Assembly (NCBI GenBank): GCA_016184145.1
Contig: JACPDF010000030.1
Span: forward strand, 76 to 64,075
Direction: 5' to 3'
DNA: 64,000 nt
DNA from: Candidatus Woesearchaeota archaeon
GTDB taxonomy: Archaea; Nanobdellota; Nanobdellia; Woesearchaeales; GW2011-AR4
Position numbers and translations under genes: made by a program. The notes under the pieces are model-generated. The model had not been told where the DNA came from. It did not search any database and saw nothing but the letters and a program-made list of their open reading frames with translations. Numbering within the stretch: position 1 is the stretch's first letter; each line of letters begins with the position of its first letter. Shown piece by piece: positions 12,978-31,298 of this stretch.

Positions 12978-13079
12978 GGGCCGGTAGTTAAACCTGGTAT
13001 AATGCGCCCTTGGCTATTTATACCAAATTGGGTGAGGCTCCGGGTTCAAAGCGATTATGTGAAAGTCCCGGCCGGTCCA
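12978..13079 (+). tRNA. tRNA-Ala(GGC) with two BHB introns (13 nt at 37/38, 15 nt at 59/60)
   Basis: Acceptor GGGCCGG/CCGGTCC includes the G3:U70 Ala identity pair and A73. D arm GTTA/TAAT, anticodon stem CGCCC/GGGTG, T arm CCGGG..CCCGG. The extra segments 13016-13028 and 13051-13065 are each bracketed by a 4-bp helix (TTGG/CCAA; TTCA/TGAA) plus two 3-nt bulges. Confidence 0.8.
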
Positions 13080-13133
13080 TTTTATTAAGGTTCATCAATA
13101 AAATTTATAAACTAATAAACAATTACAGTCTTT

Positions 13134-13688
13134 ATGGCAAATATAATCTTATGGGCAATAGTTGGAATTGTAGCTTTAATTGCCTTATACATAGTCATAA
13201 CTTTTAACAGCTTAATTATGTTAAGGAACAGGGTAAATAATGCATGGAGCCAGATAGATGTGCAGCTTAAGAGAAGATATGATTTAATTCCTAACCTAGT
13301 AAATGCAGTTAAAGGCTACATGAAACACGAAAGAGGCACTTTAACAGAAATTACAAAAATGCGCTCAAAGCTTGTTTCTGGCTCAATGAGCGAAAAGTCA
13401 AAAGCAAGCGATGCAATAAGCAATGCATTAAAGACAATTTTTGCTGTTTCCGAAGATTATCCAAAATTACAGGCATCAGAAAACTTTAAGATGCTGCAGG
13501 AAGAACTTTCAGGAACAGAAAGCAAGATAGCATTTTCAAGGCAGTTTTATAACGATAATGTAATGTCTTTAAACAATAAAATACAGCAGTTTCCAAGCAG
13601 CATGATAGCAAATTGGCTTAACTTCAAGGAAAGGGAATTTTTCAAATCTCAAGAATCAGAGAGAAAACCTGTAAAAGTAGAGTTTTAA
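13134..13688 (+). CDS. lemA: LemA family protein
   Basis: N-terminal TM helix, then NSLIMLRNRVNNAWSQIDVQLKRRYDLIPNLV.., the classic LemA motif. Confidence 0.9.
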   Translation: MANIILWAIVGIVALIALYIVITFNSLIMLRNRVNNAWSQIDVQLKRRYDLIPNLVNAVKGYMKHERGTLTEITKMRSKLVSGSMSEKSKASDAISNALKTIFAVSEDYPKLQASENFKMLQEELSGTESKIAFSRQFYNDNVMSLNNKIQQFPSSMIANWLNFKEREFFKSQESERKPVKVEF

Positions 13689-13689
13689 G

Positions 13690-14586
13690 ATGAATTTGTA
13701 TGAGCACATCTCTTCTAACAAAAGAAAGTCAATATTCTTAATTGCTCTTTTTTTTATAATTATAGTTTCATTGGGCTATTTTTTTGGGTTTTATATCGGT
13801 GATATTTTTACCGGAGTTTTTGTTGCTGTTCTTATTTCTACAATAATGCTCTTAATTAGCTATTATTCCGGCGATAAATTAATATTGAAAATGAGCCATG
13901 CTATTCCTGCAGATAGGAAAAAATATCCTCATCTGGTTAATACTGTGGAAGGCTTGGCTATTGCAGCTGGAATTCAAACTCCAAAAATTTATGTCATTAA
14001 TGACGCAGCAATAAATGCATTTGCCACGGGAAGAAATCCAAAAAACGCTTCTGTAACTGTTACAACAGGAGCAATTGAAAGGCTTAAGAGAGATGAGCTG
14101 GAAGGAGTATTGGCCCATGAATTAGCGCATATAAGAAATTATGATATAAGGATGATGATGCTAGTTGTAATCCTTGTCGGCATTATAGCCTTATTAAGCG
14201 ATTTTTTCCTAAGAACATTAATTTATGGAAAAGGGCGTAGAGGTGTTAAAGCCAGCGGTATAATTGGAGTTTTGTTAATCATAATTGGTCTTGTTTTAGC
14301 ATTATTGGCACCTTTGATATCTCAACTGATTAAATTTGCGGTCAGCAGGCAAAGAGAGTTTCTTGCGGATGCAGACGGAGCCTTATTATCAAGAAATCCT
14401 CAAGGTCTGGCAAATGCACTAAAGAAAATTAGTAATGACAAAGAGCCATTGGTAGAGGCAGCAAACAAGGCAACTGCCCATTTATTCATTGAAAACCCGC
14501 TAAGGGTTTTTAAGGGCAGGATTAATACTCTTTTTTCAACGCATCCTCCAATTGACGAAAGGATTAAAAGACTGCAAAAAGATTGA
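13690..14586 (+). CDS. htpX: M48 zinc protease HtpX homologue
   Basis: HELAHIRNYD (HExxH) lies between TM segments. C-terminal ..STHPPIDERI is typical of HtpX. Confidence 0.9.
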   Translation: MNLYEHISSNKRKSIFLIALFFIIIVSLGYFFGFYIGDIFTGVFVAVLISTIMLLISYYSGDKLILKMSHAIPADRKKYPHLVNTVEGLAIAAGIQTPKIYVINDAAINAFATGRNPKNASVTVTTGAIERLKRDELEGVLAHELAHIRNYDIRMMMLVVILVGIIALLSDFFLRTLIYGKGRRGVKASGIIGVLLIIIGLVLALLAPLISQLIKFAVSRQREFLADADGALLSRNPQGLANALKKISNDKEPLVEAANKATAHLFIENPLRVFKGRINTLFSTHPPIDERIKRLQKD

Positions 14587-14661
14587 TTTATACGTTTAGA
14601 AAAAACAAAATTATTAAAAACAATCAAAAAAATTAAAAATAATTAAATTTTTTAACCTAAA

Positions 14662-15072
14662 ATGCCAGACTGTATCTTCTGCAAAATCGTGAAAGGGGAC
14701 ATTCCAGCAGCTAAAGTCTATGAAGGTAGCAAGTTTATTGCTTTCCTGGACATAAGCCCTGCCAATAAAGGCCATGTTTTGATAATTCCAAAAGAGCATT
14801 ATGAAAGGCTGGAGGAGATGCCTAATCCAGATGGGAAGGAATTTGGAGAGCTGCAGGTTAAAATTGCAAAAGCGGTAATGAAAGCAACTAATGCCGAGGG
14901 ATTTAATTTGCTGCTTAACAACGGAAAGGCGGCAGGGCAGGAAGTGATGCATGCTCATATGCACATACAGCCCAGATTTGGCACGGATGATTTCCATTAC
15001 AAATGGACTCATAAAAAATATGAAGAAGGAGAAATGAAGCAGTTTCAGGAGAAAATAAGGAAGTTTATTTAA
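14662..15072 (+). CDS. HIT-family (histidine triad) hydrolase
   Basis: N-terminus CIFCKIVKGDIP and the triad HAHMHIQP. Confidence 0.9.
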   Translation: MPDCIFCKIVKGDIPAAKVYEGSKFIAFLDISPANKGHVLIIPKEHYERLEEMPNPDGKEFGELQVKIAKAVMKATNAEGFNLLLNNGKAAGQEVMHAHMHIQPRFGTDDFHYKWTHKKYEEGEMKQFQEKIRKFI

Positions 15073-15079
15073 TAGCAAT

Positions 15080-15089
15080 CTTTTTAAAA
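15080..15089 (+). promoter_or_regulatory. TATA-box-like element (CTTTTTAAAA) 26-35 nt upstream of the tRNA
   Basis: Same spacing as at the other tRNA loci. Confidence 0.45.
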
Positions 15090-15114
15090 GCCCTACTTAT
15101 TCTTTTTGTCTTGC

Positions 15115-15252
15115 GCCGCTGTAGCTCAGCCTGGTTAGAGCGCTAGAAATTAGATTTTAGCGAAACTCATATTTTTGAGTTAGGACCGAAAGGGATGACT
15201 TACCTCAAACCGGGTTATCTAGAGGTCGTGATTTCAAATATCGCCAGCGGCA
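15115..15252 (+). tRNA. intron-containing tRNA, most likely CAU anticodon (elongator Met or Ile2); introns at 30/31 (18 nt) and 37/38 (about 45 nt)
   Basis: Acceptor GCCGCTG/CAGCGGC with A73. D arm GCTC/GAGC, anticodon stem CTAGA/TCTAG, variable loop AGGTC, T arm GTGAT-TTCAAAT-ATCGC. 63 extra nt lie inside the anticodon arm. A perfect BHB (CGCT/AGCG with bulges AGA and AAA) removes 15147-15164 and gives CTAGA-CTCATA. The 3' junction of the second intron is not fully resolved. Confidence 0.7.
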
Positions 15253-15262
15253 TTTTTATTTT

Positions 15263-15532
15263 TTATCTCAGGAATGTATTATCCCTTGATTTTTCTATTG
15301 AATCTAAGTATCCCAAATATTTCTCATCATACCTGTCAGAGGTCTTTGTTGGAGCATAATTCTGGTAACTATCATGAGAAACTTCAAAGTTTTGCATTGT
15401 TCCCGTGATTTCCTTAAAGCCGCCAAACTCCTTGTTTTGCTCTGTTTCGTTGACTAAAATTAAAGCTATTAAAACCACAAAAACAAGCGCTACAAGCAAT
15501 GCAAAAAGCATTTCCAGGGTTTTTGTTTTCAT
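15263..15532 (-). CDS. hypothetical small membrane-anchored protein (possible class III signal peptide)
   Basis: MKTKTLEMLFALLVALVFVVLIALILV has a charged N-terminus, then LE, then a hydrophobic helix. This is reminiscent of the pilin-like genes at 20.9-23.2 kb. Confidence 0.4.
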   Translation of the reverse strand: MKTKTLEMLFALLVALVFVVLIALILVNETEQNKEFGGFKEITGTMQNFEVSHDSYQNYAPTKTSDRYDEKYLGYLDSIEKSRDNTFLR

Positions 15533-15569
15533 TATACAGAAGTAATATGGCTTTATTTATAAATATTGA

Positions 15570-15655
15570 CGCCAAGGGCAGGATTTGAACCTACGTGTCC
15601 TTGCGGACACACGCTTTCGAGGCGTGCGCGTTAGACCGGACTCCGCCACCTTGGC
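15570..15655 (-). tRNA. tRNA-Ser(CGA), no intron
   Basis: Minus-strand read GCCAAGG..CCTTGGC-G. Anticodon arm CACGC-CTCGAAA-GCGTG. Long variable arm GTCC-GCAA-GGAC. T arm GTAGG-TTCAAAT-CCTGC. Confidence 0.9.
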
Positions 15656-15689
15656 ATAATAATATGCAAAGAATTCTTATTTTAAAAAC

Positions 15690-15800
15690 CTAATGGTCTG
15701 AGCAGTCTTCCATGAAGCCGCAGTTTAAACAAACAAGCTTGCAATGCCTCTCGATAAGGGTCGTTCCGCACCTCCCGCATTCGAGCTCAGAAACCTGCAT
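15690..15800 (-). CDS. small zinc-ribbon protein (36 aa), below the ORF-track cutoff
   Basis: MQVSELECGRCGTTLIERHCKLVCLNCGFMEDCSDH carries two CxxC pairs. Confidence 0.4.
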   Translation of the reverse strand: MQVSELECGRCGTTLIERHCKLVCLNCGFMEDCSDH

Positions 15801-15846
15801 AATCAAGCTAAATAAACAATGATATTTAAATTTTTATTGAATAAGA

Positions 15847-15860
15847 ATGCTCCCGCCGAG
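15847..15860 (-). repeat. 14-bp direct copy of the tRNA-Glu 3' end (ATGCTCCCGCCGAG)
   Basis: Identical to 16651-16664, which is the T-stem 3' strand plus acceptor 3' strand plus discriminator of tRNA-Glu. Same orientation, about 0.8 kb away. Confidence 0.6.
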
Positions 15861-15932
15861 CTACATACGTTTTTGTTAAAATTTAGGGAATTTAGAATTT
15901 GCCTGCATATTGTATTTTCCGGCTAATAAAAA

Positions 15933-16562
15933 TCACCAGCACCAAGTTTGAAGTTGCGGCGCTAGCCACTCCCGTGTTAGGCAGCAGTAGGGTTTAGTTA
16001 CAGTAGGGTCTGAATAATTGTCAAGCCTGTAAAAAGGAAAACCAGTAGTAAGAGGATAGTAAGTGCAATTCACAGTAAAGTACCCTTCTAGGTAGTTGTT
16101 GTTCTCATTAGATTCACGCACTTTTGAAGTCACATCAACTGTAAAAGCTATTTTATACCTTCCGTTAGGGATTTGCCCAAGAAATGCACCAATCCCGCTT
16201 CCCTCGCCAGCGTTCAGCGATGGCATTTCATACCTAACGTTCATATAGTCTGGTACACTCATTTCAGCTATATATCTACCAGCTTTTGCAGTGCCGCTAT
16301 TAAGTATCCAAGTAGACACACGCAATGAATCTGGGTCTGCATAGTTGCTATATGTACCGTAACTAAACCACATGTCTAAGTATTTAATGTCATAAAATAC
16401 TAAGTCTGGCTTGGGGTTGCTCGACCTTACTGCACCTCCGGTTAGCGAAGACAAACCATTAGAAATTATTGCTATAAATACTGCTAAAATAATCAAAACA
16501 AGCAGAATAGGATACCATTTATGAGTTTTGCTTTCTTCCGCCTCGGCCTCTTTTTTTGGCAT
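15933..16562 (-). CDS. membrane-anchored protein with CARDB-like domain
   Basis: N-terminal TM helix. PDLVFYDI... and ..VRESNENNNYLEGYFTV resemble CARDB (cell-adhesion-related) motifs. Confidence 0.5.
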   Translation of the reverse strand: MPKKEAEAEESKTHKWYPILLVLIILAVFIAIISNGLSSLTGGAVRSSNPKPDLVFYDIKYLDMWFSYGTYSNYADPDSLRVSTWILNSGTAKAGRYIAEMSVPDYMNVRYEMPSLNAGEGSGIGAFLGQIPNGRYKIAFTVDVTSKVRESNENNNYLEGYFTVNCTYYPLTTGFPFYRLDNYSDPTVTKPYCCLTREWLAPQLQTWCW

Positions 16563-16651
16563 TTTTCCGCTATTTTTTAATTTTATGAGAATTAGTGTTT
16601 ATAAACTTTCTTATTTCCAATTTGTAATTGCTTAATCAGAAGTAAAATTTG

Positions 16652-16844
16652 ATGCTCCCGCCGAGACTTTCAATGCTAAAGTCCCTTTAGCTTCTTTGAA
16701 CTCGGGTCACCGGCGCGAGAGGCCAGTATGATTGTTTGTCCATCTGGTTGCGAGCGTTTAGCGAGCACGTGGGGCTTTGCGAAGCAAATGCCGCACCTTG
16801 CGTGTCAACCGCGCGTAACCAGTTGCCGGACTACACCACAGGAG
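16652..16844 (-). tRNA. tRNA-Glu(CUC) with two BHB introns (90 nt in the D-loop, 28 nt at 59/60)
   Basis: Acceptor GCTCCTG/CGGGAGC with A73. Anticodon arm CTGGC-CTCTCGC-GCCGG, T arm CCGAG..CTCGG. The D-loop intron 16735-16824 is bracketed by GTCC/GGAC plus bulges GGC and AAA; removing it gives GTGTAGTCCGGACAATCAT, a normal Glu-type D arm. The T-loop intron 16666-16693 is bracketed by TTCA/TGAA. Confidence 0.8.
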
Positions 16845-16869
16845 CACAAGGTAAGAGAAAAATTACCGC

Positions 16870-16879
16870 TTTATAAATA
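16870..16879 (-). promoter_or_regulatory. TATA-box-like element (TTTATAAA core) 26-35 nt upstream of tRNA-Glu
   Basis: CTTTATAAATAT at 16869-16880. It lies in a divergent spacer shared with the GTPase gene. Confidence 0.45.
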
Positions 16880-16927
16880 TTTGTGGTGTCAAATTAAAAT
16901 AATAAGCAGTTTTTTAAATCTGGCGGC

Positions 16928-17695
16928 ATGAGCAAGCTCATGAAGAAAGGATTCTGGGTTGTAGTCAAGGATATGATTAGGAATGCAGACGTTATTCTGG
17001 AAGTGCTAGATGCAAGAATGCCTGAGCTTACCAGAAACAAAAAACTGGAAAAGTATGCCTCAATTTTAGGAAAAAGGCTGATCCTAGTCATAAACAAAAT
17101 CGACATAGTATCTCCAAAAACAATTGAAAGCATAGAAAAAAGATACTCCGGCCAGGATTATGCCCTTGTATCTTCCACAGCAGGCAAAGGCATGGAGCAT
17201 TTTATCAGGTTAATAAGAGGCAAAACAAAAAAAGACGCTTTCAAAGTGACCGTTATTGGTTATCCCAATACCGGAAAGAGCTCGCTTATAAACAGATTAT
17301 CAAGGGGAGGAAAGGCAAAAACAAGCTTAGAATCAGGTTTTACTAAAGGAATGCAGCTGATTACTGGCAAAAGCGGCCTTATGCTCATAGACACTCCAGG
17401 TGTAGTGCCTTATGGGGCAAGGGAAGAGGCTATGCTCGGATTAACATCTGCTATCAGCCCAGATAAGTTAAGCGATCCAGAAGCTGTCGCTTACCATCTT
17501 CTCAAAATATTCAAGCAAAATAATCCGATTGTTCTTGAAAAAGAGTATGGTCTTAATGCTGATTTAAGCCCGGAAGAATTACTGCTGGAATTCGGAAAGA
17601 AGAGAAACATGCTTATCAAAAAAGGAATGGTTGATGAGAGAAGAGCTGCAATACAGCTTCTTACTGACTGGCATAAGGGCAAGATTAGGCTGTAA
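16928..17695 (+). CDS. circularly permuted GTPase (YlqF/RbgA-like ribosome-biogenesis GTPase)
   Basis: G4 (NKIDIV) precedes G1 (GYPNTGKSS) and G3 (DTPGV). Confidence 0.85.
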   Translation: MSKLMKKGFWVVVKDMIRNADVILEVLDARMPELTRNKKLEKYASILGKRLILVINKIDIVSPKTIESIEKRYSGQDYALVSSTAGKGMEHFIRLIRGKTKKDAFKVTVIGYPNTGKSSLINRLSRGGKAKTSLESGFTKGMQLITGKSGLMLIDTPGVVPYGAREEAMLGLTSAISPDKLSDPEAVAYHLLKIFKQNNPIVLEKEYGLNADLSPEELLLEFGKKRNMLIKKGMVDERRAAIQLLTDWHKGKIRL

Positions 17696-17716
17696 GCATT
17701 TGCATGAATATAAAAA

Positions 17717-17948
17717 CGCCGAGACTGGGACTTTCAAACAGCTGCCTAGTTGTTAAGTCAGGCAACAAGCGGCTCGTGCAAAAGCTCAAGCCAATTTGCA
17801 AATTGCTGTCTTTGAACCCAGATGCCCCTCGCCTGCGAGTGAGCTCCTTTTTTGCGAACTCGCTCACAATTCACGGGCCAGGCTTGCTTGCATAATTCCA
17901 GGCTTACACCCTAACGGTCTGTGCAATACCGGGTTATGCGATCTCGGC
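17717..17948 (-). tRNA. intron-rich tRNA-like locus; anticodon arm not resolvable by eye
   Basis: Acceptor GCCGAGA/TCTCGGC with G73. D arm GCAT-AACCCGGTA-TTGC. T arm CTGGG-TTCAAA..T-CCCAG with an 80-nt 59/60 intron (17731-17810, TTCA/TGAA BHB). About 78 further extra nt lie between the D and T arms, including the BHB element 17833-17868. TATA-like TTTAAAAAG at 17973-17981. Confidence 0.55.
17833..17868 (-). repeat. copy 2 of the BHB-bracketed hairpin element, inside the tRNA-like locus
   Basis: Minus-sense layout GTGA / ATT / GTGAGC..GCTCAC / TCGC / AGG. 17835-17874 is the reverse complement of 8104-8143 apart from a 4-nt patch. Confidence 0.7.
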
Positions 17949-18025
17949 ATGAAATAAAAGAGTTTGTTATTGTTTAAAAAGCTTTATTATTTGATGAGAA
18001 ATAAGAAAATAAAAAAGAAAAAAAT

Positions 18026-18238
18026 TTATTTTTTCTTGGCCATTCCACCTGTCCTTACTGCCTTGCAGTCCGGGCAACCAGCAGATGCCAAACTGCCAAC
18101 ACCGCCTGCTATGAATGCTGCTGTCCACCACTGGATATTCCAGAAGTCCCAGTAGCCCAGGTCAACAACCAGGAATACTATGCCCAACACCAAAAAAATG
18201 GCGCCGCATATCTTCATGCACTTATCACACATACACAT
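18026..18238 (-). CDS. hypothetical small Cys-rich membrane protein
   Basis: 70 aa. MCMCDKCMKICG.. at the N-terminus, two TM helices, and a C-terminal CPDC. Confidence 0.4.
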   Translation of the reverse strand: MCMCDKCMKICGAIFLVLGIVFLVVDLGYWDFWNIQWWTAAFIAGGVGSLASAGCPDCKAVRTGGMAKKK

Positions 18239-18406
18239 TAGGCATCACCCTTTTTAGTTTAATTCTATACCTCTAAGAAGCAGTGTTTAAATACCTTTTT
18301 ATATTTTTAGAAACAGAATCGCTCTAACATTTCAATTTCGATATTCAAACCCTCGGGCAGTGGAAAATTTCTTTGAAATTTTCTAGCTTTCGGGACTTTT
18401 AAAGAA

Positions 18407-18709
18407 CTATTCGAGCATTTCGATTTCGATATTGAGCCCCTCAGGAATAGGAACCCTCATGACCAGCCTTAAAGCCCTTTCATCAAGGCCAAGGTCAATA
18501 AGCCTTTTATGAACGCGCATCTCATATCTTTCCCATGTGGCAGTTCCTTCGCCATCCGGGCTTTTTCTTGTGGTAACTTTAAGCTTTTTGGTAGGCATAG
18601 GAATAGGACCGCGCATTTCTACTCCGGTCTTGTCTGCAATGTCCTTTATGTAGCTGCAGACTTCGTTTATCTTGTTTATGTCTATGCTTGCTAACTTTAT
18701 TCTTGCTTT
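18407..18709 (-). CDS. rps10: 30S ribosomal protein S10 (start codon unresolved)
   Basis: [42 protein letters not shown] is the S10 core. The same frame is open upstream and encodes ..[31 protein letters not shown], the S10 N-terminus. There is no ATG, GTG or TTG between the in-frame TAG (18719-18721) and Met 18616. Confidence 0.85.
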
Positions 18710-19994
18710 ATTTCTTGACTAGGTCAATGCACATTCCTGCTGCTACTGTCGTGCCAGAGTCCCTTATTGCGAACCTCGACATCTGCGGAATGTCTTTTTG
18801 CCTTTCTATAACCATCGGCTGTATAGGCTTTATCTTCACTATAGCAGCATCCCCGTTCTTGATGAAATCTGGATTCTCTTCTTTCACCTGCCCTGTTGCA
18901 GGATCAAGCTTCTTCTCTATCTTAATGACTTGGCATGCCACCTGCGCTGTGTGCACGTGGAATACGGGCGTGTAGCCTGCGCTTATGACAGTTGGGTGAT
19001 TCAATACAACAAGCTGTGCAGTAAACTCGGTTGCAACAGTTGGCGGATTGTCAACATGCCCAAGAACATCTCCTCTTGCAATATCTTTTTTGCCTAGGCC
19101 GCGAACGTTAAACCCTACATTATCTCCTGGCTCTGCCTGCTGCAGCTGCTCATGGTGCATCTCTATAGTCTTTACTTCTCCATGCACTCCTTTGCCTTCC
19201 CTTCCGGGCATTATTATAACCTTGTCATTGACTTTCATTATGCCTGTCTCTACTCTTCCAACTGGCACAACACCAATTCCAGTGATGTTGTAAACATCCT
19301 GTATAGGCAGCCTTAATGGAAGCTGAGTTGGCTTTTCAGGCTCTTTTAATGTGTCTAATGTTTCCAACAATGTCTTTCCAGTATACCATGGCATTTTATC
19401 TGATTTTTTAGCTACATTCTCCCCTAGCAATGATGCTCCTGCAACAAATGGAATTTCATCCGGCTTGTAGCCAACGCTCTTTAGCAAGTCAGAAACCTGC
19501 TTCTTTACATCATCAAACCTTTTCTGGTCGTACTTTGCCATGTCCATCTTGTTGACATAGACAATAAGCTGGTTAACTCCCAATGTCCTGGCTAAGAAAA
19601 CGTGCTCTTTTGTCTGCGCCTGCACACCATCTCCAGGGTTTCCTGAAACAACCAGGACGCCTGCATCAGCCTGTGATGCTCCTGTAATCATGTTCTTGAT
19701 GAAATCCTTGTGGCCCGGTGCATCAATTATTGTAAAATAATATTTTGGCGTTTCAAACTTCCTATGGGCAAGGTCAATTGTAACTCCTCTTTCCTGCTCT
19801 TCCTTTAAATTGTCCATTACGAAAGCGAACTCAAAGCCTCCTTTTCCCAAGCTTTCAGCTTTTTCCTTGAGTTTCCTCATGGCCTGTTCGTCTATATTCT
19901 TTGTGTCATACAGCATTCTGCCTACTGTAGTGCTTTTTCCATGATCAACATGACCAATGAATACAAGGTTAATATGCACTTTTCCTTTAGCCAT
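18708..19994 (-). CDS. tuf: translation elongation factor EF-1 alpha
   Basis: [17 protein letters not shown] and NKMD motifs; full-length 428 aa. Confidence 0.97.
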
Positions 19995-20109
19995 TTTCTA
20001 CCTCCAAATTGTAATTTTTGACTGTAATTTGCTATTAGTGGGAAAGATGAGTTATTTATAAAGCTTATGGTTTTTATTTTTTGGCTTCTAAGGCAGTTTC
20101 CGAGAAAAA

Positions 20110-20634: not shown

Positions 20635-20672
20635 TTTCTATAGTTTAGTTTAAGGCAAAGGCTCGAAACACG

Positions 20673-21474: not shown

Positions 21475-21479
21475 AACCA

Positions 21480-21749: not shown

Positions 21750-21811
21750 TTTGTTCTTATAGCAACTTTTTTATATATGTTATCCAATAATTTTTCTGGA
21801 TTAACTGAAAA

Positions 21812-22624: not shown

Positions 22625-22629
22625 GCAAA

Positions 22630-24125: not shown

Positions 24126-24176
24126 TTTTACAATGTATTTTGATTATTATTAATAAATTTAATTGTTTCTGCAAGA

Positions 24177-24590
24177 TCATCTGACCAGCAGCTTACTGAC
24201 AAGAGCCCTCAAGGCTTTTATCCTTAAAATCATTTCTTTCGCTTCCTGCTCAGAAACTTCCTTGCCATAATAATTTACGCTATTCCTTGCCTTTCTTATC
24301 TCATCAAATTCCTCTGCCTGATGGCTTTCACTTAGGACTTCTCTCAGAAATGCAGTATAGCACTCATGATTGTAGACTTTAAACCCGTTTTTAAGCGCCA
24401 AAGCCTCCAAAAGCTCCCTAAGCGAGTCATAGGCGAGGGACAGCTTTGAGGCTGCGGTAATATTATCCATGCTAAGCTTGCTTTCAGACTCCATTTTGTT
24501 TTTGCTGGACTTTACAAGAGAATTTATCATGTCCTCATCAGGCTTTGCTTCCTTGGCAATTCTTTTATTGCAGCACTCTTCCCAGTCCAT
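24177..24590 (-). CDS. HEPN domain protein (toxin partner of an MNT nucleotidyltransferase)
   Basis: ..EFDEIRKARNSVNYYG.. (R-N-x-x-x-Y HEPN motif). Lies 1 nt downstream of the NTase gene. Confidence 0.75.
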   Translation of the reverse strand: MDWEECCNKRIAKEAKPDEDMINSLVKSSKNKMESESKLSMDNITAASKLSLAYDSLRELLEALALKNGFKVYNHECYTAFLREVLSESHQAEEFDEIRKARNSVNYYGKEVSEQEAKEMILRIKALRALVSKLLVR

Positions 24591-24591
24591 G

Positions 24592-25101
24592 CTAGGTTCT
24601 CAGCCTCCCGCTTAAAACATAGCCGTTGGCTATATTGCTTGCCAATTCCCTGCTCTTGGCTTTTGCCAATCCCTCAAACCAGTAAATCTGTATTTTTCTC
24701 TTCAGCTTATTTTCAAAACTTTTAATGTCGAGCTTTCTTTCGCTTGCGAAGATCGCCAAATCAATATCAGAATCATTTTTTGCCTCCGCCTTGGAAAGCG
24801 AGCCAAAAAGCACTATTGCGGGGCTCATTAAATGCTCCTCAATATAGGCTGTCAATTCTTTTAATTTTTGGCGCCAATAGATTCTCGACAAGTCTATGAA
24901 AACTTTGCTGTCCTTGTTTGCATAGAACAGGAGGTTATTCCTATACGCGGTTTTGAGCAGCAATCCTTCTTTCACATAGTAATTCAGCATTTTGGATGAG
25001 GTTGGGGGTGTTATATGGGTCAATTTCGCATACTCCCTCACATTGATTCTTCTGTAGCAATCCTCAAAAAACGGGCTTAAATCATTAATTATTTTTAACA
25101 T
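24592..25101 (-). CDS. minimal nucleotidyltransferase (MNT) with N-terminal wHTH
   Basis: LFGSLSKAEAKNDSDIDLAIF matches GS-x(9-10)-DxD. Confidence 0.8.
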   Translation of the reverse strand: MLKIINDLSPFFEDCYRRINVREYAKLTHITPPTSSKMLNYYVKEGLLLKTAYRNNLLFYANKDSKVFIDLSRIYWRQKLKELTAYIEEHLMSPAIVLFGSLSKAEAKNDSDIDLAIFASERKLDIKSFENKLKRKIQIYWFEGLAKAKSRELASNIANGYVLSGRLRT

Positions 25102-25175
25102 ATGTTAATTAAAATTAACAGATGTTTAAATACTTTTTGGTTTTACTCGAGTTTCCCAGACTTCCTACAAGAATT

Positions 25176-25727
25176 CTACTTCTTCCACTTGATGCTGCAT
25201 CCCATAGAAGGCTGCTGCTCTAATGCAATCTTGCCGTTTTTTAGGAATTGCCCAATGGCTTCGTGCATCTCATGCTTATTTGCTTCTTCCTGGCCGTGGG
25301 TGTCATCCAATCGGCTATGAAATATTAGGTTAAAATTGCCGTCAAACAGGAATGGATCCGGAGTGCAGCTTGCTCCATAGTCTTTTGCGGTTTTTTGTGT
25401 TTCATCCCTTAGATAGATGAAGTTAATGCCCCTTTCTTTGGCAGTTTTCTTCATGCCTTCAAAATTGTCTTCCGGGACAAAATTCTCATCATTTGGGTTA
25501 ATGCCAACAACAACCACCCCTTTGTTTTTATAGTCGGATTGTATTCTTTTAAGCTCATTGATTTTTGGCTTTACATAGGGGCAATGGTTGCACATGAAAA
25601 CAACAAGCAATGCTTTTGCATTTTTAAAATTTGATAAAGAATATGTTTTATTATCTACACCGGGAAGCTTGAAATCCGGAGCATTCATTCCTTTTTTTAA
25701 TTTGCTTATTGATTCTACCAATGCCAT
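25176..25727 (-). CDS. thioredoxin-fold redoxin (AhpC/TSA-like thiol-disulfide oxidoreductase)
   Basis: ..LLVVFMCNHCPYVK.. has a CxxC in a redoxin context. Confidence 0.75.
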   Translation of the reverse strand: MALVESISKLKKGMNAPDFKLPGVDNKTYSLSNFKNAKALLVVFMCNHCPYVKPKINELKRIQSDYKNKGVVVVGINPNDENFVPEDNFEGMKKTAKERGINFIYLRDETQKTAKDYGASCTPDPFLFDGNFNLIFHSRLDDTHGQEEANKHEMHEAIGQFLKNGKIALEQQPSMGCSIKWKK

Positions 25728-25828
25728 TTTATCACCTTAATTCCGGGAAGCGCTTATTATATTTAAAAATAATGTTTTTTGCTGCAAAACGAAAGCAATT
25801 TATATTCAATTTAATTCCGTTAATAATC

Positions 25829-26143
25829 ATGATTATTGCAAACACAGATTATGTCGCTGGCAAAAAGATAAAGGAAACCCTCGGCATAGTGAGGGGCAGC
25901 ACAGTAAGGGCAAAGCACATAGGCAAGGATGTAATGGCTATGCTAAAGCAGATTGTAGGGGGAGAGATTACAGGATATACTCAAATGATAAATGAAGCCA
26001 GAGATGAAGCAGTAAAAAGAATGGTGGAAGAGGCAAAAAAGCTGAAAGCCGATGCAATTGTCAATGTAAGGTTTGCAACATCCGATATAATGCAGGGAGC
26101 TGCTGAAGTCATGGCTTACGGGACTGCTGTTAGGTTAAAATAA
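25829..26143 (+). CDS. YbjQ/UPF0145 family protein
   Basis: ..GIVRGSTVRAKHIGKDVMAMLKQIVGGEI.GYTQMINEARDEA...M.EEAKKLKADAIVNVRF.. is typical YbjQ. Start taken at the internal Met MIIANTD (25829). Confidence 0.8.
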   Translation: MIIANTDYVAGKKIKETLGIVRGSTVRAKHIGKDVMAMLKQIVGGEITGYTQMINEARDEAVKRMVEEAKKLKADAIVNVRFATSDIMQGAAEVMAYGTAVRLK

Positions 26144-26156
26144 TCATAGAGGAAAA

Positions 26157-26282
26157 TTAGTCTACTAAAGAATCAATAAGCTCTTTCTGCTGCCGGGACC
26201 AGACCTTGTCAGGATGGTTTCTGATGTATTTAGCCCAGTACCTGATCATCCATTCCCTGTCTTCCTTGTTCTTATTTTCCAT
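26157..26282 (-). CDS. hypothetical 41-aa protein
   Basis: MENKNKEDREWMIRYWAKYIRNHPDKVWSRQQKELIDSLVD. Its start overlaps the 3' end of the upstream NTase-fold gene by 11 nt. Confidence 0.3.
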   Translation of the reverse strand: MENKNKEDREWMIRYWAKYIRNHPDKVWSRQQKELIDSLVD

Positions 26283-26844
26283 ATTCCTTAATTAGGCTTT
26301 CATAGTATTTAATTTTTTCTTCAGAGACATGCCCTTTAAATACCTCTTTCAGGTGCAGAGCATCTTCTTTGTCCTTTTCGCTTCCAAGCACTATTAGCTT
26401 ATAAGGTATCTGAATCTCAATCGGGGATATGAACAAGGTTACACCTCTTATTTTTACCTTAGCTTTTTCCTTTAAGGTCTCTTTGTCTATCAAAGAATCA
26501 GCAAACTTAAGCTCGATATTTGGAATGACTTTTTTCTTTCTTGCAAACCTTATCGAGTGTTTTGTCTGCAACAGTTCAAAAAGTTCACTAATTTCTTCTT
26601 CATTAATGCACCAGAACTCTTTTGACAAATCCTTATAGAGCTTTTTGAAATTGCCTTCATCAATCTTTGGGATTAATATATCTATGTCTTCTGAAATGCG
26701 GCTCCTGCCAAAAAGTATGGCAACATACCCAGAAACCAGAACATAATCTGTATGCCTTTTAAGGACATTTACAAAGTCAATGACTAATTTATCGAGATTG
26801 TTTAATATTTTATCCAAGATAACAACTTTGCCTTTTATTTTCAT
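26272..26844 (-). CDS. nucleotidyltransferase-fold protein (AbiEii/DUF6036-like)
   Basis: SGYVAILFGRSRISEDIDILI matches G-x-x-A...R.S.DxD. I place the start at Met30 (26844) because codons 1-29 of the tracked ORF read through a tRNA-derived repeat. Confidence 0.55.
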   Translation of the reverse strand: MKIKGKVVILDKILNNLDKLVIDFVNVLKRHTDYVLVSGYVAILFGRSRISEDIDILIPKIDEGNFKKLYKDLSKEFWCINEEEISELFELLQTKHSIRFARKKKVIPNIELKFADSLIDKETLKEKAKVKIRGVTLFISPIEIQIPYKLIVLGSEKDKEDALHLKEVFKGHVSEEKIKYYESLIKEYGK

Positions 26845-26913
26845 GCAATAGGGGAGTTCTTTTTGCTTTATATATTCTTCCCCTAAATGTCCAGTGGTAA
26901 TTAATGAGCCTGC

Positions 26914-26934
26914 AGGGATTCGAAAATACATTTT
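26914..26934 (-). repeat. distal 21-bp copy of the tRNA-Arg 3' exon (candidate att site)
   Basis: ATGAGCCTGCAGGGATTCGAA is identical to 31162-31182, in the same orientation. Confidence 0.8.
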
Positions 26935-26984
26935 CTCATCTCAATTTGTTATGCAAGCAGATACTATCCATTTCCCCCAGTAAC

Positions 26985-26994
26985 CTTTATAAAT
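26985..26994 (+). promoter_or_regulatory. TATA-box-like element (CTTTATAAAT) 22-31 nt upstream of the MutS-like gene ATG
   Basis: Same motif and spacing as srp54. Confidence 0.45.
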
Positions 26995-27015
26995 TGACAC
27001 TACTACCAAATAACA

Positions 27016-28944
27016 ATGTTAGATGATAAGGTAAGAGCTATCGATTATGAAACTATTGCCATCCTCTTTAGAAACCAGCCATTACGAACCGGGAAATATT
27101 CTGAATGGTGTTTGAGTCCTCGGTATGAGAAAGAAAAAAGACCTGAAAGGATGTTGGTTGATTCTTTTTATGGGCCACTCCAAGAAAGATTATCTAATCT
27201 AATGCCCCCGCTAGAAAAAACAAAAAGGGAGATTAAAGTCAAAAGGGAATATCCATTTAAAGGGGAAAAAGTGATTCATATACCCATAAATAACTTTTTA
27301 ATGGCTTCGTATGGTATGATGGGCGGTAAAAGTCTCGAATATTTCCCTACAATTAGAAAAGACAAGGAAAGGGAAGTTATTATGCTTTATGAAGATTCTT
27401 GGGTGAAGCCTCTACCAAACATTAATGCAATTCAGAGAAGACAGCAAGAATTGCGGGAATTGGTAGAAGATAAACCATATGCAGATGGGATTGATGCTCT
27501 TGCTCAATCCTTGAATAACATACTCCTGCCTCACCTCCATCTTTCCTCACTTACAAAATTGCTGGTTTCAAATACCTTAGGCGCATCAAGGTCTATGCCT
27601 ATCCATAGAAAGGACCAAGATGCCTTTTACCAGGATTACCTACGTTTTTGCAGGGAGTTTGTCCGTTGGTATGATGAAGCGAAAGACATTTCTTCCTCTG
27701 TTCAGCCAACATCCCAAAATATGAAGGGAACTGTCAAAGGGATTTGTTCTATTTTAGCTGAAAGCCCTCTCGTTGCTTCCTATAAGACAGCTCGCAATCT
27801 TGTGGATGATGCTCCTGCTTCTTTTGGCAAATTACGTGAGAGGGTTATGGCGTGCACTTCAGGAAAACCATTAGTTACACAAGAGAAACTGGAGAAATTG
27901 ACTGAAATGGTTCGCAATGAAGCGAGGAAAGCGCGAGACTTTTATTTTGAACACCCACCTGAGTGGTTAAGAATATTTCAAGAAGACAAATCAAAAAAAG
28001 GAAGTGTGATGGCAACAGAAAAGGAATACATGGATTTCTATCTTTACAAAGAACAAATGAGGAGATTAGGTTATTTTTCCATAAAGTCAGGCTTAACCGT
28101 CCCATGGCCATTTGCCCAATCTGACAATGCAATCGTGACAATAAATCGCCTTGCAAATCACTTTACAGCAGCCCTCTCTCATGCTGAATATATTAGAAAT
28201 AAGGAAGGGTGGACAGTTCCCAATACTCTTCCAAAAAGATTAGGGGTTATAGATATTAAAAACGGGTGGTATCCTCTAACTCCGCTATACAAAGGAGAGA
28301 AGTTTGCCTATAATGACACCTACCTTAACGGCCAGCAAAGAGTGGAAATACTTGATGGCACCAATAGGGGCGGCAAAACAATTGATATGAGAAAAACCGC
28401 TTTTGCAGTTGTTTGCGCGCTTGCAGGAAATTATGTCCCGGCTGGAGAAGGAACAAGAATATCTTATTTTGATAATGTCTATATTCGTCTCAGAAGTGGT
28501 GGATTGAACGACCAAAGTGCTCTTGAGCAGGAGCTTAATTCTACACATAAACTCATTGAAAAAATAAAATCTGGCTCTGCAGCCCTGGTCTGCATTGATG
28601 AGCCTTGGTCTTCTACGAATGCAAAGGAAGGGGAAGGGCTGACATATGGGTTAGTGAGGCGAATATCGGAAATCAGGCAAATAGCGGAAATTCCGAGCGC
28701 GAGGGGAGTTTTCGCAATCCATTACCCTCAAATGAGGCAGCATACTTTAGGAATTGAAGGGGTTGCACATTCCCATTTCGAATATAGTGAGGAAAATGGA
28801 GAAGTCATAACAAATCACCAAAAGCTTCCTGGGCCAAATCCACAGCCAGGGTACGCTTTCGTGATAGCGCGCGCAGAAGGACTCCATCCACAGGTGTTAG
28901 CCCATGCAATGAGGCTTTACCAGGAGAAGCACCATGAAAAGTAG
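27016..28944 (+). CDS. MutS-core/domain V-like ABC ATPase, paralogue A (no mismatch-binding or Smr domain seen)
   Basis: C-terminus YNDTYLNGQQRVEILDGTNRGGKTIDMRK (Walker A-like), ..NYVPAGEG.., ..DQSALEQELNS.., ..LVCIDEPWSSTNAKEG (Walker B), ..FAIHYPQM. The order and spacing match MutS domain V. Confidence 0.7.
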   Translation: MLDDKVRAIDYETIAILFRNQPLRTGKYSEWCLSPRYEKEKRPERMLVDSFYGPLQERLSNLMPPLEKTKREIKVKREYPFKGEKVIHIPINNFLMASYGMMGGKSLEYFPTIRKDKEREVIMLYEDSWVKPLPNINAIQRRQQELRELVEDKPYADGIDALAQSLNNILLPHLHLSSLTKLLVSNTLGASRSMPIHRKDQDAFYQDYLRFCREFVRWYDEAKDISSSVQPTSQNMKGTVKGICSILAESPLVASYKTARNLVDDAPASFGKLRERVMACTSGKPLVTQEKLEKLTEMVRNEARKARDFYFEHPPEWLRIFQEDKSKKGSVMATEKEYMDFYLYKEQMRRLGYFSIKSGLTVPWPFAQSDNAIVTINRLANHFTAALSHAEYIRNKEGWTVPNTLPKRLGVIDIKNGWYPLTPLYKGEKFAYNDTYLNGQQRVEILDGTNRGGKTIDMRKTAFAVVCALAGNYVPAGEGTRISYFDNVYIRLRSGGLNDQSALEQELNSTHKLIEKIKSGSAALVCIDEPWSSTNAKEGEGLTYGLVRRISEIRQIAEIPSARGVFAIHYPQMRQHTLGIEGVAHSHFEYSEENGEVITNHQKLPGPNPQPGYAFVIARAEGLHPQVLAHAMRLYQEKHHEK

Positions 28945-30556
28945 TGTTCTTGATGAGGAAACAAGAAAAATTTTTACCTATGATGACGAATTAGAAAGAT
29001 GGGACCGTCTCTGGAGGAAGATTGATGGCCTCATTAATTTTGGGGTGCCAAATGTTCCGTCCTTGGATGATTTGCTCTTAAGCCCCAAAACTGACATAAA
29101 TGAAATAAATGGCCAATTGGATGCAGTGGAATATTTAATCAGGAATCCGGATTTCTTAAAGCAATTTAAAAGAATTGATGAAGATACTCATGCTGCTATT
29201 GGCGGGTTCTTTTTTTCTGAGTCTCCAAGACTGGTAAGAAAAGGATGGGAGAACTATCTGGCCAACTCACCAAAAGATAAGCAATTAGCCGAATTATTAA
29301 GATATTTGGAGCGAGAAACAAAAGACCATTGGGAGCAGGCAATTGAGGGAATAAAAAATGCAATAGGATTTTTCAATCTGGCGCAAAAGCTTCCAAGAAA
29401 ATTAGAAATTAAAAAACATACTCCAAAAAAAATTGAAAGCATATGTGCGGAATATGATAAGTTAATTTCATCCCCACAGGTTACTGAAGCATTAGATTAT
29501 GCTTCAAGAGCAGTTGGTCATTTTGAAACCATTCAACAAAAATACTCATCAGATAAACAAAAAGAAAAGTATGCGCATGTCATTGATTTGAGGCGAAAAA
29601 AAGTAGATAACCCTAATTTGAGATTGAAAGATTATGATAAACATATAGAAAAACTAAGGAGAAGCCAAGAACGTTCTAGGGATTATGAAATTAGACTTGT
29701 AAAGCGATTAATTTCTGAGCTTGGCGATTTGATTAAAACGGAAGATGCCAACAGAAACTTAGAAATCCTTACTGGGATGAAAAAACAGTGGAATTTAACC
29801 GAGCTGTTCACCTATATGGAATTAGCAGCAGTTGCCTACAGAAACAATTGGACTCGCCCTGAGATTGCTCCAAGGGAAGAAAATTGCCTCATCATAAGGA
29901 ATGGTGTGTTTTACCCCCGTCAGAGAAGAAGGCATGATTATACACCTAATGACACTTACTTGAATTTGTATCTGGCCAATACTCATCGTGTCGAAATTCT
30001 TGAGGGAGTTAATATGGGCGGTAAAACTATGGATATGAAAAAGGCCCTCTATATTGCTACATTGGCATTGTCTGGCAGCTTTGTCCCAGCAACATATGCA
30101 TGTGTTTCTGCCAGAGACAGGATTATCCTCAGAGGCAAGGGAGATGGCCAGGATCGCTCAGCCTTCGTACAGGATGTTGCAAGAGTAAACGAAATTGTGC
30201 CTCCTGCTGGGCAATATTGGCTGGCCGCATTAGACGAGCCATTTACTTCTACAGAAGCTGATGGAGGGATGTATCTTACGGCAGGTGTTGCAATAACTGT
30301 CGCTGGACAAGGAAATTCATTGTTGATTCTCTCCAGCCATTATCCCAGCTTAAAAGAATTATTAGATGGTGATTCTACAGTTAAATTCAATCATTTCCCT
30401 TTTACTATGGAAGGAAAAAAAGTGACGTTTCCGCATAAAAAACAAGAAGGAGGGTTAAAAGATTATGCGTATGCTATCGCAGTTGCCAGGTCTCGCGGGT
30501 TTGATGAAACAACCTTGCAATACGCAAGTGAGTATCTCCAAAATCAGAAAAAATGA
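28934..30556 (+). CDS. MutS-core/domain V-like ABC ATPase, paralogue B
   Basis: PNDTYLNLYLANTHRVEILEGVNMGGKTMDMKK, ..SFVPATYA.., ..DRSAFVQDVAR.., ..LAALDEPFTSTEADGG, ..LSSHYPSL. Its start overlaps the stop of paralogue A by 11 nt (ATGAAAAGTAG). Confidence 0.7.
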   Translation: MKSSVLDEETRKIFTYDDELERWDRLWRKIDGLINFGVPNVPSLDDLLLSPKTDINEINGQLDAVEYLIRNPDFLKQFKRIDEDTHAAIGGFFFSESPRLVRKGWENYLANSPKDKQLAELLRYLERETKDHWEQAIEGIKNAIGFFNLAQKLPRKLEIKKHTPKKIESICAEYDKLISSPQVTEALDYASRAVGHFETIQQKYSSDKQKEKYAHVIDLRRKKVDNPNLRLKDYDKHIEKLRRSQERSRDYEIRLVKRLISELGDLIKTEDANRNLEILTGMKKQWNLTELFTYMELAAVAYRNNWTRPEIAPREENCLIIRNGVFYPRQRRRHDYTPNDTYLNLYLANTHRVEILEGVNMGGKTMDMKKALYIATLALSGSFVPATYACVSARDRIILRGKGDGQDRSAFVQDVARVNEIVPPAGQYWLAALDEPFTSTEADGGMYLTAGVAITVAGQGNSLLILSSHYPSLKELLDGDSTVKFNHFPFTMEGKKVTFPHKKQEGGLKDYAYAIAVARSRGFDETTLQYASEYLQNQKK

Positions 30557-30665
30557 GTCATCTCCTATAGAAGTGCACTTTCTGATCCTCTTCCCCGGAT
30601 ATGGGAGAAAGGTAAAATGAGCCCGAGGGGACTTCCAAATCCTGACCAAAAAGTCCGGGATATTT

Positions 30666-30695
30666 GAATTTTCCGGCCGAAAATTCGCAATTTTC
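30666..30695. repeat. overlapping short hairpins related to the GAAAAT(T)C family
   Basis: GAATTTTC-CGGCC-GAAAATTC (30666-30686) and GAAAATT-CGC-AATTTTC (30679-30695), nested in GTCCGG...CCGGAC (30652-30707). Confidence 0.5.
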
Positions 30696-30754
30696 AAGCA
30701 TCCGGACTCACCCATTCCTAGAATAAGTTTTATATATAAAAATAGTGTTTTGGA

Positions 30755-31093
30755 TTACGCTTGATTGTATAGCATATTATGGACTAGATACTCAACATTT
30801 CTTAAGACATCAATAGAAGTTGGGCGATAACCGTCAGGATTTTCAAAGCCTTCCTTTCCATAATTCCAACAAACAGAGAGAGGGACATCCGATTTAAATA
30901 CGAGGGCTTTGTGTTCTCCTCTAATGTCAATTATCCTACCAGCTGACCTTTCCCTTACCAGATACTCAATGAGTTTCTCTATTCCGGAAAATTCCTCATG
31001 GTGAAGCTCAAAGCTGCTGCCTGCAGGCCTCTGATGCATTACGCCCCATTCCTTCTTTGGTTTTGATGTCATGTATAGAATTATTGTTGGCAT
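30755..31093 (-). CDS. hypothetical protein (orphan; islet cargo)
   Basis: 112-aa ORF with no recognisable motif. It lies between the MutS-like pair and tRNA-Arg. Confidence 0.45.
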   Translation of the reverse strand: MPTIILYMTSKPKKEWGVMHQRPAGSSFELHHEEFSGIEKLIEYLVRERSAGRIIDIRGEHKALVFKSDVPLSVCWNYGKEGFENPDGYRPTSIDVLRNVEYLVHNMLYNQA

Positions 31094-31161
31094 ATTTTTT
31101 AGTGGAGGATTGTTATTTATAAATTTAGCTCTTTTTTAGTGATAACTAAACAAGTAAGATG

Positions 31162-31182
31162 ATGAGCCTGCAGGGATTCGAA
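31162..31182 (-). repeat. proximal 21-bp repeat, equal to the 3' exon of tRNA-Arg
   Basis: Identical to 26914-26934. It covers TTCGAATCCCTGCAGGCTCA plus 1 nt, which is exactly the part downstream of the 53/54 intron. Confidence 0.8.
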
Positions 31183-31298
31183 GTTCAGTACTGCAAAAAT
31201 AAACTTGCAATATCCCTGATCAATCGGTCCCTGCAAGCAACGCTTGCTCGCGTCACCCACCGAAGCCGACCGCACTATCCTGGTTATGCTACAGGCCC
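31163..31298 (-). tRNA. tRNA-Arg(UCG) with two 31-nt introns (37/38 and 53/54)
   Basis: Acceptor GGGCCTG/CAGGCTC with A73. D arm GCAT/GTGC. Anticodon stem GTCGG/CCGAT with loop CTTCGG..A. T arm CAGGG..TTCGAAT-CCCTG. The 53/54 intron (31183-31213) has a perfect BHB (TCAG/CTGA with bulges GGA and ACT). The anticodon intron (31229-31259) has a 3-of-4-bp central helix. Confidence 0.8.

Follow-up and report, generated by a model that had tools for sequence, protein, structure and literature searches.

The 64,000-nt stretch of DNA analysed here (the window; contig JACPDF010000030.1 of a Candidatus Woesearchaeota archaeon) carries six tRNA genes, five of which appear to be interrupted by protein-spliced introns of the archaeal type, twelve inserts in all and as many as four in a single gene. 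Taking out the twelve inserts at positions marked by bulge-helix-bulge (BHB) motifs restores five canonical cloverleaves, as judged by ARAGORN. This result, together with the BHB geometry of the junctions, the orthologues in related genomes that have no introns or are interrupted differently, and a metagenome contig with the same four-insert gene, supports the reading of the five loci as real, spliced tRNA genes, to which we assign, on sequence grounds, a probability of about 0.9. The initial annotation of this DNA had proposed BHB introns at five of six tRNA loci, mostly two per gene and mostly at non-canonical positions, and all three points are borne out: the five genes have 2, 2, 2, 2 and 4 inserts, and 8 of the 12 inserts occupy non-canonical positions (19/20, 29/30, 30/31, 53/54, the variable arm and, three times, 59/60).

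Six tRNA genes and their inserts

When the unspliced window is scanned with ARAGORN, and with Rfam at the gathering threshold, the sole call is the uninterrupted tRNA-Ser(CGA) at 15570-15655 on the minus strand (Rfam 55.9 bits; TATA-like box at -33). In E-value mode the Rfam tRNA model additionally reports a tRNA at 15115-15252(+), with 47.3 bits and a 70-nt insert within the anticodon arm, and misses the exons at the four loci whose introns are non-canonical. The interrupted genes were recovered by enumerating BHB candidates at the five loci, splicing them in silico and rescanning the products with ARAGORN. The geometry required on the 5' strand was an outer helix, a 4-nt central strand and a 3-nt bulge, and on the 3' strand a 4-nt central strand, a 3-nt bulge and an outer helix, with the cut placed after the second bulge nucleotide. 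The number of BHB motifs by itself was rejected as evidence, since motifs that have 3 or more base pairs in the outer helix arise by chance about 20,000 times per strand across the 64 kb. The restoration of a tRNA by splicing is far more discriminating: the five loci gave 408 ARAGORN calls from 125,833 combinations of one or two introns, compared with a single call in about 4.1 million combinations from 18 other intergenic regions, both strands included. That lone control call is a poor tRNA-Asn at about 18.1 kb, 99 nt long and riddled with mismatches, and we regard it as a false positive because of its poor structure and its location inside an open reading frame (ORF). The scan of these 18 regions revealed no further tRNA with up to two introns, and genes with three or more introns could escape it. 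Two more candidates, GTTCAAATC at 7197-7205 and AGTCCGGTA at 49111, were ruled out as tRNAs, the first for lying inside a coding ORF and the second for being coding.

The six genes appear to be independently transcribed. Each has a TATA-like box (TTTATAAA, TTTTTAAA or TTTATAC) whose start lies 31-34 nt before the 5' end predicted for the mature tRNA, and each is followed by a T-rich sequence 3' of the gene end. The fixed distance of the promoter boxes supports the tRNA genes independently of the splicing test.

The interrupted tRNA-Ala(GGC) gene at 12978-13079(+) gives a 74-nt spliced cloverleaf in ARAGORN and has its TATA-like box at -31. The spliced products carry the correct identity marks, in this case the G3:U70 pair. 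Its two introns are both strict BHB motifs. The first (13016-13028, 13 nt) lies at 37/38, with outer helix CGCCC/GGGTG, central helix TTGG/CCAA and bulges CT^A and AT^T (the caret marks the cut), and the second (13051-13065, 15 nt) lies at 59/60, with outer helix CCGGG/CCCGG, central helix TTCA/TGAA and bulges AA^G and AG^T. The elongator-like tRNA-Met(CAU) at 15115-15252(+), 75 nt when spliced and also an ARAGORN cloverleaf, has a TATA-like box at -34 and a U53-A61 pair in the T-stem. An 18-nt intron at 30/31 (15147-15164; central helix CGCT/AGCG, bulges AG^A and AA^A, outer helix of 3 bp) is followed by a 45-nt intron at 37/38 (15172-15216) with a relaxed motif, whose central helix CTCA/CGGG contains an A.C mismatch and whose outer helix is possible only once the first intron has been removed.

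The other three interrupted genes are on the minus strand. tRNA-Glu(CUC) at 16653-16845(-), with a TATA-like box at -32 and a spliced cloverleaf of 75 nt in ARAGORN, has a 90-nt intron at 19/20 in the D-loop (16736-16825) and a 28-nt intron at 59/60 (16667-16694). The latter is a strict BHB; the former has a perfect central helix GTCC/GGAC, bulges GG^C and AA^A, and an inner helix of 7 bp with 1 mismatch. tRNA-Arg(UCG) at 31163-31298(-), 74 nt when spliced, again an ARAGORN cloverleaf with the box at -32, has two introns of 31 nt each. The one at 37/38 (31229-31259) combines an outer helix of 7 bp and an inner helix of 9 bp with a central helix, CTTC/GCAG, that has one mismatch; the one at 53/54 (31183-31213) is a strict hBHBh' motif with 4 outer base pairs, central helix TCAG/CTGA and 9 inner base pairs.

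The most heavily interrupted locus is tRNA-Ser(GGA) at 17717-17948(-), 90 nt when spliced and with its TATA-like box at -32. ARAGORN recognises this gene only with all four inserts out, and fails if the variable-arm insert is kept. The first intron (17904-17918, 15 nt) lies at 29/30, with central helix GCAC/GTGT and bulges AG^A and AA^G; the second (17885-17895, 11 nt) lies at 37/38, where the central helix CTGG/CAAG has one mismatch. The third insert (17833-17868, 36 nt) is a copy of a repeat and sits in the loop of the variable arm, with a perfect central helix GTGA/TCGC, bulges AT^T and AG^G and an inner helix of 6 bp. The fourth (17731-17810, 80 nt) is a strict BHB at 59/60 and contains a conserved motif, GTTGCCTGACTTAACA. 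That all four inserts are excised introns is probable from these sequence features, with the variable-arm insert, discussed below, the one in dispute.

Every intron position that the initial annotation had given for the Ala, CAU, Glu and Arg genes proved correct after splicing and rescanning. For the 17.7-kb locus its 59/60 intron stands, and its "at least one more" understated a total of four inserts. Its statement that tRNA-Ser alone is uninterrupted holds for Ser(CGA), the 17.7-kb locus being a second, interrupted tRNA-Ser. The 4-bp helix flanked by 3-nt bulges that it described has the right geometry at 12 of 12 inserts, with a perfect helix in 9 and one mismatch in 3, and the context TTCA-AA^G...TGAA-AG^T recurs at each of the three 59/60 introns.

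It should be asked whether a mechanism other than the splicing endonuclease EndA acting on BHB motifs could remove or tolerate these inserts, as self-splicing introns or through trans-splicing of split or permuted tRNA halves. Group I introns exist in rRNA genes of Woesearchaeota (PMC6125680), and tRNAs of the split and permuted kinds are known from other archaea (PMC4033280). The inserts, at 11-90 nt, are however too short for self-splicing ribozymes and match no Rfam intron family; the exons are colinear and contiguous within 102-232 nt at each locus, so that no permutation or trans-splicing is needed; and the junctions have the geometry of the BHB. We give this explanation almost no credence.

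If splicing follows the established archaeal pathway, each exon-intron boundary of the precursor RNA would fold into a BHB or relaxed BHB, EndA would cut after the second nucleotide of each 3-nt bulge, and an RtcB-type ligase would join the exons. In the two genes with an intron in the anticodon stem (Met 30/31 and Ser(GGA) 29/30), this intron would probably be removed first, because the stem that it interrupts doubles as the outer helix for the 37/38 motif. Intron removal in a set order has been described for Thermoproteales (tRNAscan-SE 2.0, PMC8450103), and was shown by RT-PCR in Cyanidioschyzon merolae (Soma et al. 2013, PMC3728597). Since 8 of the 12 introns are non-canonical and several of the motifs are relaxed, a splicing endonuclease of broad specificity is a reasonable expectation from the sequence. 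This expectation matches Kaneta et al. 2018 (PMC5829648), who describe an alpha4-type EndA with an L3 loop in DPANN archaea and link it to increased disruption of tRNA genes.

Orthologues in related genomes

Two sets of sequences served for comparison: the EF-1alpha neighbourhoods of 80 related genomes (L001-L080), and 70 metagenome contigs obtained by a pattern search for the variable-arm repeat (L081-L150). ARAGORN finds almost no tRNAs in the related EF-1alpha neighbourhoods either. Only 8 were called in 24 such neighbourhoods (from L001-L035, mostly 6-21 kb in length), in which several interrupted orthologues are visible, and under-annotation of tRNAs seems to be general in this clade.

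The orthologues provide a test of the junctions that does not depend on the BHB rule. Those without introns (in L008, L077, L074, L011, L046 and L056) independently fix the junctions of nine introns, and at 7 of these 9 the central helix is perfect; the estimated probability of this by chance is roughly 1e-7, assuming about 0.02-0.06 per site. tRNA-Ser(GGA) is intron-less in L077 and L074, which fixes its mature sequence and 4 of the 8 exon ends in the window, and the mature loop CTGGAAA is that of L077. About 20 orthologues of this gene have from 0 to 3 inserts, at the D-loop, 29/30, 37/38 and 59/60. At 29/30 the central helix shows compensatory changes, with GCAC/GTGT in the window and L073, GCGC/GCGT in L006 and GCAC/GTGC in L099.

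The strongest single item comes from the last of these. In the L099 metagenome contig, tRNA-Ser(GGA) has each of the four inserts in the position that it takes in the window, and the exons of the two genes are identical at 88 of 90 positions. The inserts differ in length (21, 13, 30 and 70 nt in L099, 15, 11, 36 and 80 nt in the window) and have diverged in sequence, with the pairing retained. Such a pattern is what would be expected, as far as sequences can tell, if the gene is functional and its introns are spliced out.

The other genes are supported in similar ways. tRNA-Glu is intron-less in L008, and the spliced product from the window is identical to it at 74 of 75 positions; the 19/20 site is also occupied in L014, and the 59/60 site in L006 and L069. 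Orthologues of tRNA-Met were found in L046, L011, L120, L094 and L083. The sequence of L046 is contiguous at 30/31 (CTAGA-CTCATA), the anticodon arm of L011 is uninterrupted (CTACG-CTCATAA-CGTAG), and L120 has an intron at the same 30/31 site and three introns in total; at 37/38 the 3' intron ends are homologous in L046 and L120. tRNA-Ala(GGC) is intron-less in L056 and L080.

The source organism is uncultured, some of its motifs are relaxed, and two of the spliced tRNAs have unusual nucleotides, U37 in Ala and U53-A61 in Met, where G53-C61 is near-universal. These features could be taken as marks of pseudogene decay, or of chimeric assembly, at the interrupted loci, with the functional tRNAs encoded elsewhere. 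We consider this very improbable: the same architectures are present in independent assemblies (L099, L120, L014, L006 and L046), exons are conserved where introns diverge, a promoter box stands at a fixed distance from every gene, and the near identity of the spliced tRNA-Glu to an intact gene is hard to reconcile with decay. The unusual nucleotides also recur in orthologues from other genomes, U37 in the Ala genes of L056 and L080 and U53-A61 in the Met genes of L094 and L083, and are therefore lineage traits rather than signs of decay.

Several observations do weigh against the five loci being genes with spliced BHB introns. In the primary transcript, three of the 12 motifs lack an outer helix (Glu 19/20, Ser(GGA) 29/30 and the Ser(GGA) variable arm), and the central helix of three contains one mismatch (Met, Ser(GGA) and Arg, all at 37/38). 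The minimum-free-energy folds of the junction segments are BHB-like for some of the introns and show competing helices for others. The two unusual features of Met and Ala belong here too, though both recur in relatives. No orthologue of tRNA-Arg was found among the related loci compared. No EndA or RtcB domain was detected in the 59 window ORFs scanned, nor were the two proteins found in the related loci with a consensus-like probe. Finally, the variable-arm insert of tRNA-Ser(GGA) also occurs in intergenic DNA, and so may be a mobile element and not a classical intron.

The variable-arm repeat and other mobile inserts

The repeated nature of the variable-arm insert is evident within the window itself. 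The first 27 nt of the unit, made up of the exon sequence GTGAAT and 21 nt of the insert, recur exactly (27/27) at 8104-8130(+), with 0 of 100 shuffles giving a match; the whole second copy occupies 8104-8150(+) in an intergenic spacer (38/41 in the blast match). The repeat is absent from the 80 EF-1alpha loci and present in the 70 metagenome contigs retrieved by its pattern. Its consensus is X-GTGA-ATT-GTGAGCGAG-(variable loop)-CGAGCTCAC-TCGC-ATC-TCAC-X', in which the core positions were fixed by the search pattern, so their conservation is not evidence. In L099 a copy occupies the same tRNA-Ser(GGA) site, and in L120, a contig syntenic with the window, a copy fills the variable arm of tRNA-Ser(CGA), which is empty in the window. 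Other copies lie inside the 59/60 introns of L096 and L110, in antisense orientation inside the tRNA-Met intron of L094 and L083, in the apical loop of a conserved RNA in L093, L119 and L135, and in spacers. Three loci have orthologous sites that are filled in some genomes and empty in others: the two tRNA-Ser genes, Ser(GGA) and Ser(CGA), and the RNA at 53.5 kb. All three copies in tRNA exons (window and L099 Ser(GGA), L120 Ser(CGA)) are in sense orientation, and antisense copies in tRNA genes occur only within an intron.

Two folds can be drawn for the repeat. Pairing of the 5' GTGA with TCGC gives the exact BHB geometry; in most copies the same GTGA has an alternative partner in the TCAC further downstream, and the product of that pairing is a long hairpin, not a BHB, whose internal loop is 3x7. 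Complementarity of the flanks, and with it a contiguous outer helix, is present in only about 9-11 of 62 distinct copies. Rfam gave no meaningful matches to the repeat copy or to the RNA at 53.5 kb, and in 20 of the contigs bearing the element its only matches were two tRNAs and an RNase P RNA, with the element in none of the three. A reading of the repeat as a K-turn was also considered and set aside, as the tandem G.A pairs are present but, judged from the sequence, the arrangement of bulge and strands does not fit.

The alternative that has to be weighed for tRNA-Ser(GGA) is that only three of its inserts are true introns, and that the 36-nt insert is an unspliced mobile repeat, either kept as a giant variable arm or inactivating the gene. 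The copies outside tRNA genes, in the spacer at 8104-8150 and in the 70 contigs, would fit such a repeat, as would the lack of an outer helix in the tRNA, the non-BHB hairpin open to most copies, and a minimum-free-energy fold that is not a BHB in the tRNA context either. Excision by the BHB rule, moreover, leaves a variable region 7 nt longer than those of the relatives. Yet the geometry of the insert is exactly that of a BHB, with its 4-bp central helix, 3-nt bulges in the correct order and 6-bp inner helix, and ARAGORN finds the tRNA only without it. Retention of the insert in L099, between conserved flanking exons, argues against a dead gene, and the sense orientation of all three exonic copies is the only one with valid geometry. 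We know of no tRNA-Ser with a variable arm of about 57 nt, the size that an unspliced insert would require. On balance we regard an unspliced insert as rather unlikely, and excision of all four inserts as the probable course.

A further, tentative proposal, which we would put a little short of even odds, draws on the many copies of the repeat, on its filled and empty sites and on the sense orientation of its copies in tRNA exons. The variable-arm insert may belong to a lineage-specific family of mobile elements that carry their own BHB cassette, GTGA-ATT-(hairpin)-TCGC-ATC-TCAC. Such an element would land in the hairpin loops of RNAs (tRNA variable arms and other structured RNAs), in introns and in spacers. 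A sense copy within an RNA gene would be removed by EndA, the splicing endonuclease of the host, and its removal would leave a small, harmless hairpin scar, GTGA-AUC-UCAC. If true, this would be a self-disarming mobile intron, and it would explain how one tRNA gene came to have four introns.

The RNA that offers the third pair of filled and empty sites is a conserved, GC-rich, structured RNA in intergenic DNA at about 53480-53640(+) of the window. It has homologues in L093, L119 and L135 and no Rfam match. It is closed by a helix, GGGTGCCATC...GATGGCACC, and contains the hairpin GACATTCCCC-GTGA-GGGACATCCCCCTTGTC. The loop of this hairpin is filled by the repeat in the three homologues, and is empty in the window, where it reads GTGA. 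Adjoining this RNA, the segment at 53601-53690(+) has a weak Rfam match to box C/D RNAs (E = 6), with GAUGAUGG and CUGA motifs, and may be a C/D box sRNA.

Two of the other introns belong to families that can be followed through related genomes. The 90-nt D-loop intron of tRNA-Glu, with the core CAACTGGTTAYGCNCGGTTGACACGCAAG, is one member of a structured family with homologues at L026:18480-18570 and L046:14525-14600. Its positions are 19/20 in the window, 37/38 in the tRNA-Glu of L026 and 59/60 in the tRNA-Glu(UUC) of L046. One intron family at three positions implies that the intron has moved, and this parallels the intron transposition of Thermoproteales (PMC4033280). The 59/60 intron of tRNA-Ser(GGA) is recognisable by an invariant GAGC...GTTGCCTGACTTAACA core in nine genomes (the window, L004, L006, L008, L010, L014, L026, L069 and L099), with the rest of its sequence diverged. 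A consensus fold of this family gave no covariation and a weak 5-bp stem only.

Two further observations concern the introns of tRNA-Glu and tRNA-Met. At L029:12300-12420 a duplicate of the first 15 nt of the gene lies just upstream of an intact tRNA-Glu(CUC), and after the duplicate comes a stretch similar to the 5' part of the Glu intron family; it may be the remnant of an intron or of an integration event. As for tRNA-Met, a box C/D guide RNA can lie inside an archaeal tRNA intron, as in the tRNA-Trp type. In the Met 37/38 introns of L046, L026, L056 and L041, motifs that resemble GUGAUGA and CUGA suggest a box C/D RNA. The window's own Met 37/38 intron has ends homologous to those of the relatives but no C and D boxes, and such an RNA is unsupported there; Rfam likewise gave no C/D match in the tRNA loci of the window.

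Known systems and the meaning for the Woesearchaeota

The window comes from the chromosome of an archaeon and has a GC content of about 38%. The best matches to its EF-1alpha, encoded at 18708-19994(-), reach 90% identity and are from metagenome-assembled genomes (MAGs) labelled Candidatus Woesearchaeota or Nanoarchaeia, and because of this identity the host is assigned by sequence to the Woesearchaeota group of the DPANN superphylum. The initial annotation had named DPANN as one of two options for a genome of this kind, and this was the right one. The genes of the window include those for SRP54, GluRS, ArgRS, EF-1alpha, ribosomal protein L10e and TIM, and in addition Alba, the exosome subunits Rrp4/41/42, SBDS, proteasome alpha and an RNase P protein; EF-1alpha, exosome, proteasome and Alba mark the host as archaeal. 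Two neighbouring genes at 27016-30556(+) each encode a product with MutS domain V as its only domain (642 and 540 aa).

Genes with several non-canonical BHB introns are not new in themselves. They are known from Thermoproteales, from ARMAN and, briefly, from other DPANN archaea, one Woesearchaeota genome among them. The multi-intron tRNA genes of Thermoproteales were reportedly treated by Sugahara and colleagues in 2008 and by Fujishima and colleagues in 2010; Fujishima in 2011 and Hirata in 2012 are said to have dealt with the disrupted tRNA genes of DPANN archaea that have an alpha4 EndA with an L3 loop or an epsilon2 EndA. As in the window, tRNA genes of Thermoproteales have several BHB introns each, mostly at non-canonical positions such as 59/60, 53/54, 29/30 and the D-loop (PMC4033280, PMC8450103). 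The two also share nested introns that need ordered removal and similar introns at different tRNA positions. Unlike the crenarchaeal Thermoproteales, the host of the window is a DPANN archaeon of a mesophile type with low GC (38%), and the enzyme to be expected is an alpha4 endonuclease with an L3 loop, in contrast to the (alpha-beta)2 enzyme with the crenarchaeal loop.

The density of introns can be compared directly. The record genome, that of P. calidifontis, has 71 introns in 46 tRNA genes, and the mean for Thermoproteales is 0.84 per gene (PMC8450103). With 12 introns in 6 genes, or 2.0 per gene, the window lies above the published figures, six genes being a very small sample. The published maximum is three introns per tRNA gene (PMC4033280, PMC8450103), against four inserts in Ser(GGA), and a literature search found no archaeal tRNA gene with four introns. 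The closest comparison within the superphylum is Kaneta et al. 2018 (PMC5829648), which covers one Woesearchaeota genome and describes disrupted tRNA genes in DPANN archaea that have, as in the window, non-canonical and multiple introns with relaxed BHB motifs. Gaps in the tRNA sets of DPANN genomes are taken there to point to undetected disrupted genes. That study gives proportions at the level of genomes only, and, as far as its accessible text shows, does not report the exon-intron structures of the window, its four-insert gene and intron families, or the repeat. Outside the archaea, C. merolae (PMC3728597) has BHB-type introns in the D-loop, variable arm and T-loop like those found here. 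It differs in having a eukaryotic nuclear genome, a maximum of three introns per gene and a single reported variable-arm intron. With regard to guide RNAs, the tRNA-Trp type of box C/D intron resembles the Met 37/38 introns of the relatives, with their box-like motifs, and differs from that of the window, which is without them. Judging from the sequences, then, what would go beyond the published literature is the local density of introns, the four-insert gene, an intron family at different positions outside Thermoproteales, and a repeat that bears its own BHB.

These results have practical as well as biological consequences. Since standard tRNA finders miss five of the six genes in this window, the tRNA sets of Woesearchaeota and other DPANN archaea are probably badly under-annotated, which affects estimates of genome completeness and claims of missing tRNAs or of dependence on a host. 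For the splicing machinery, the locus predicts that the alpha4-type endonuclease of DPANN archaea accepts motifs without an outer helix. The extent to which tRNA genes can be fragmented is also widened, as both the 2.0 introns per gene and the four-insert gene exceed the published values. Finally, the filled and empty sites, the introns that change position and the repeat with built-in splice signals would make the gain of tRNA introns a testable process outside Thermoproteales.

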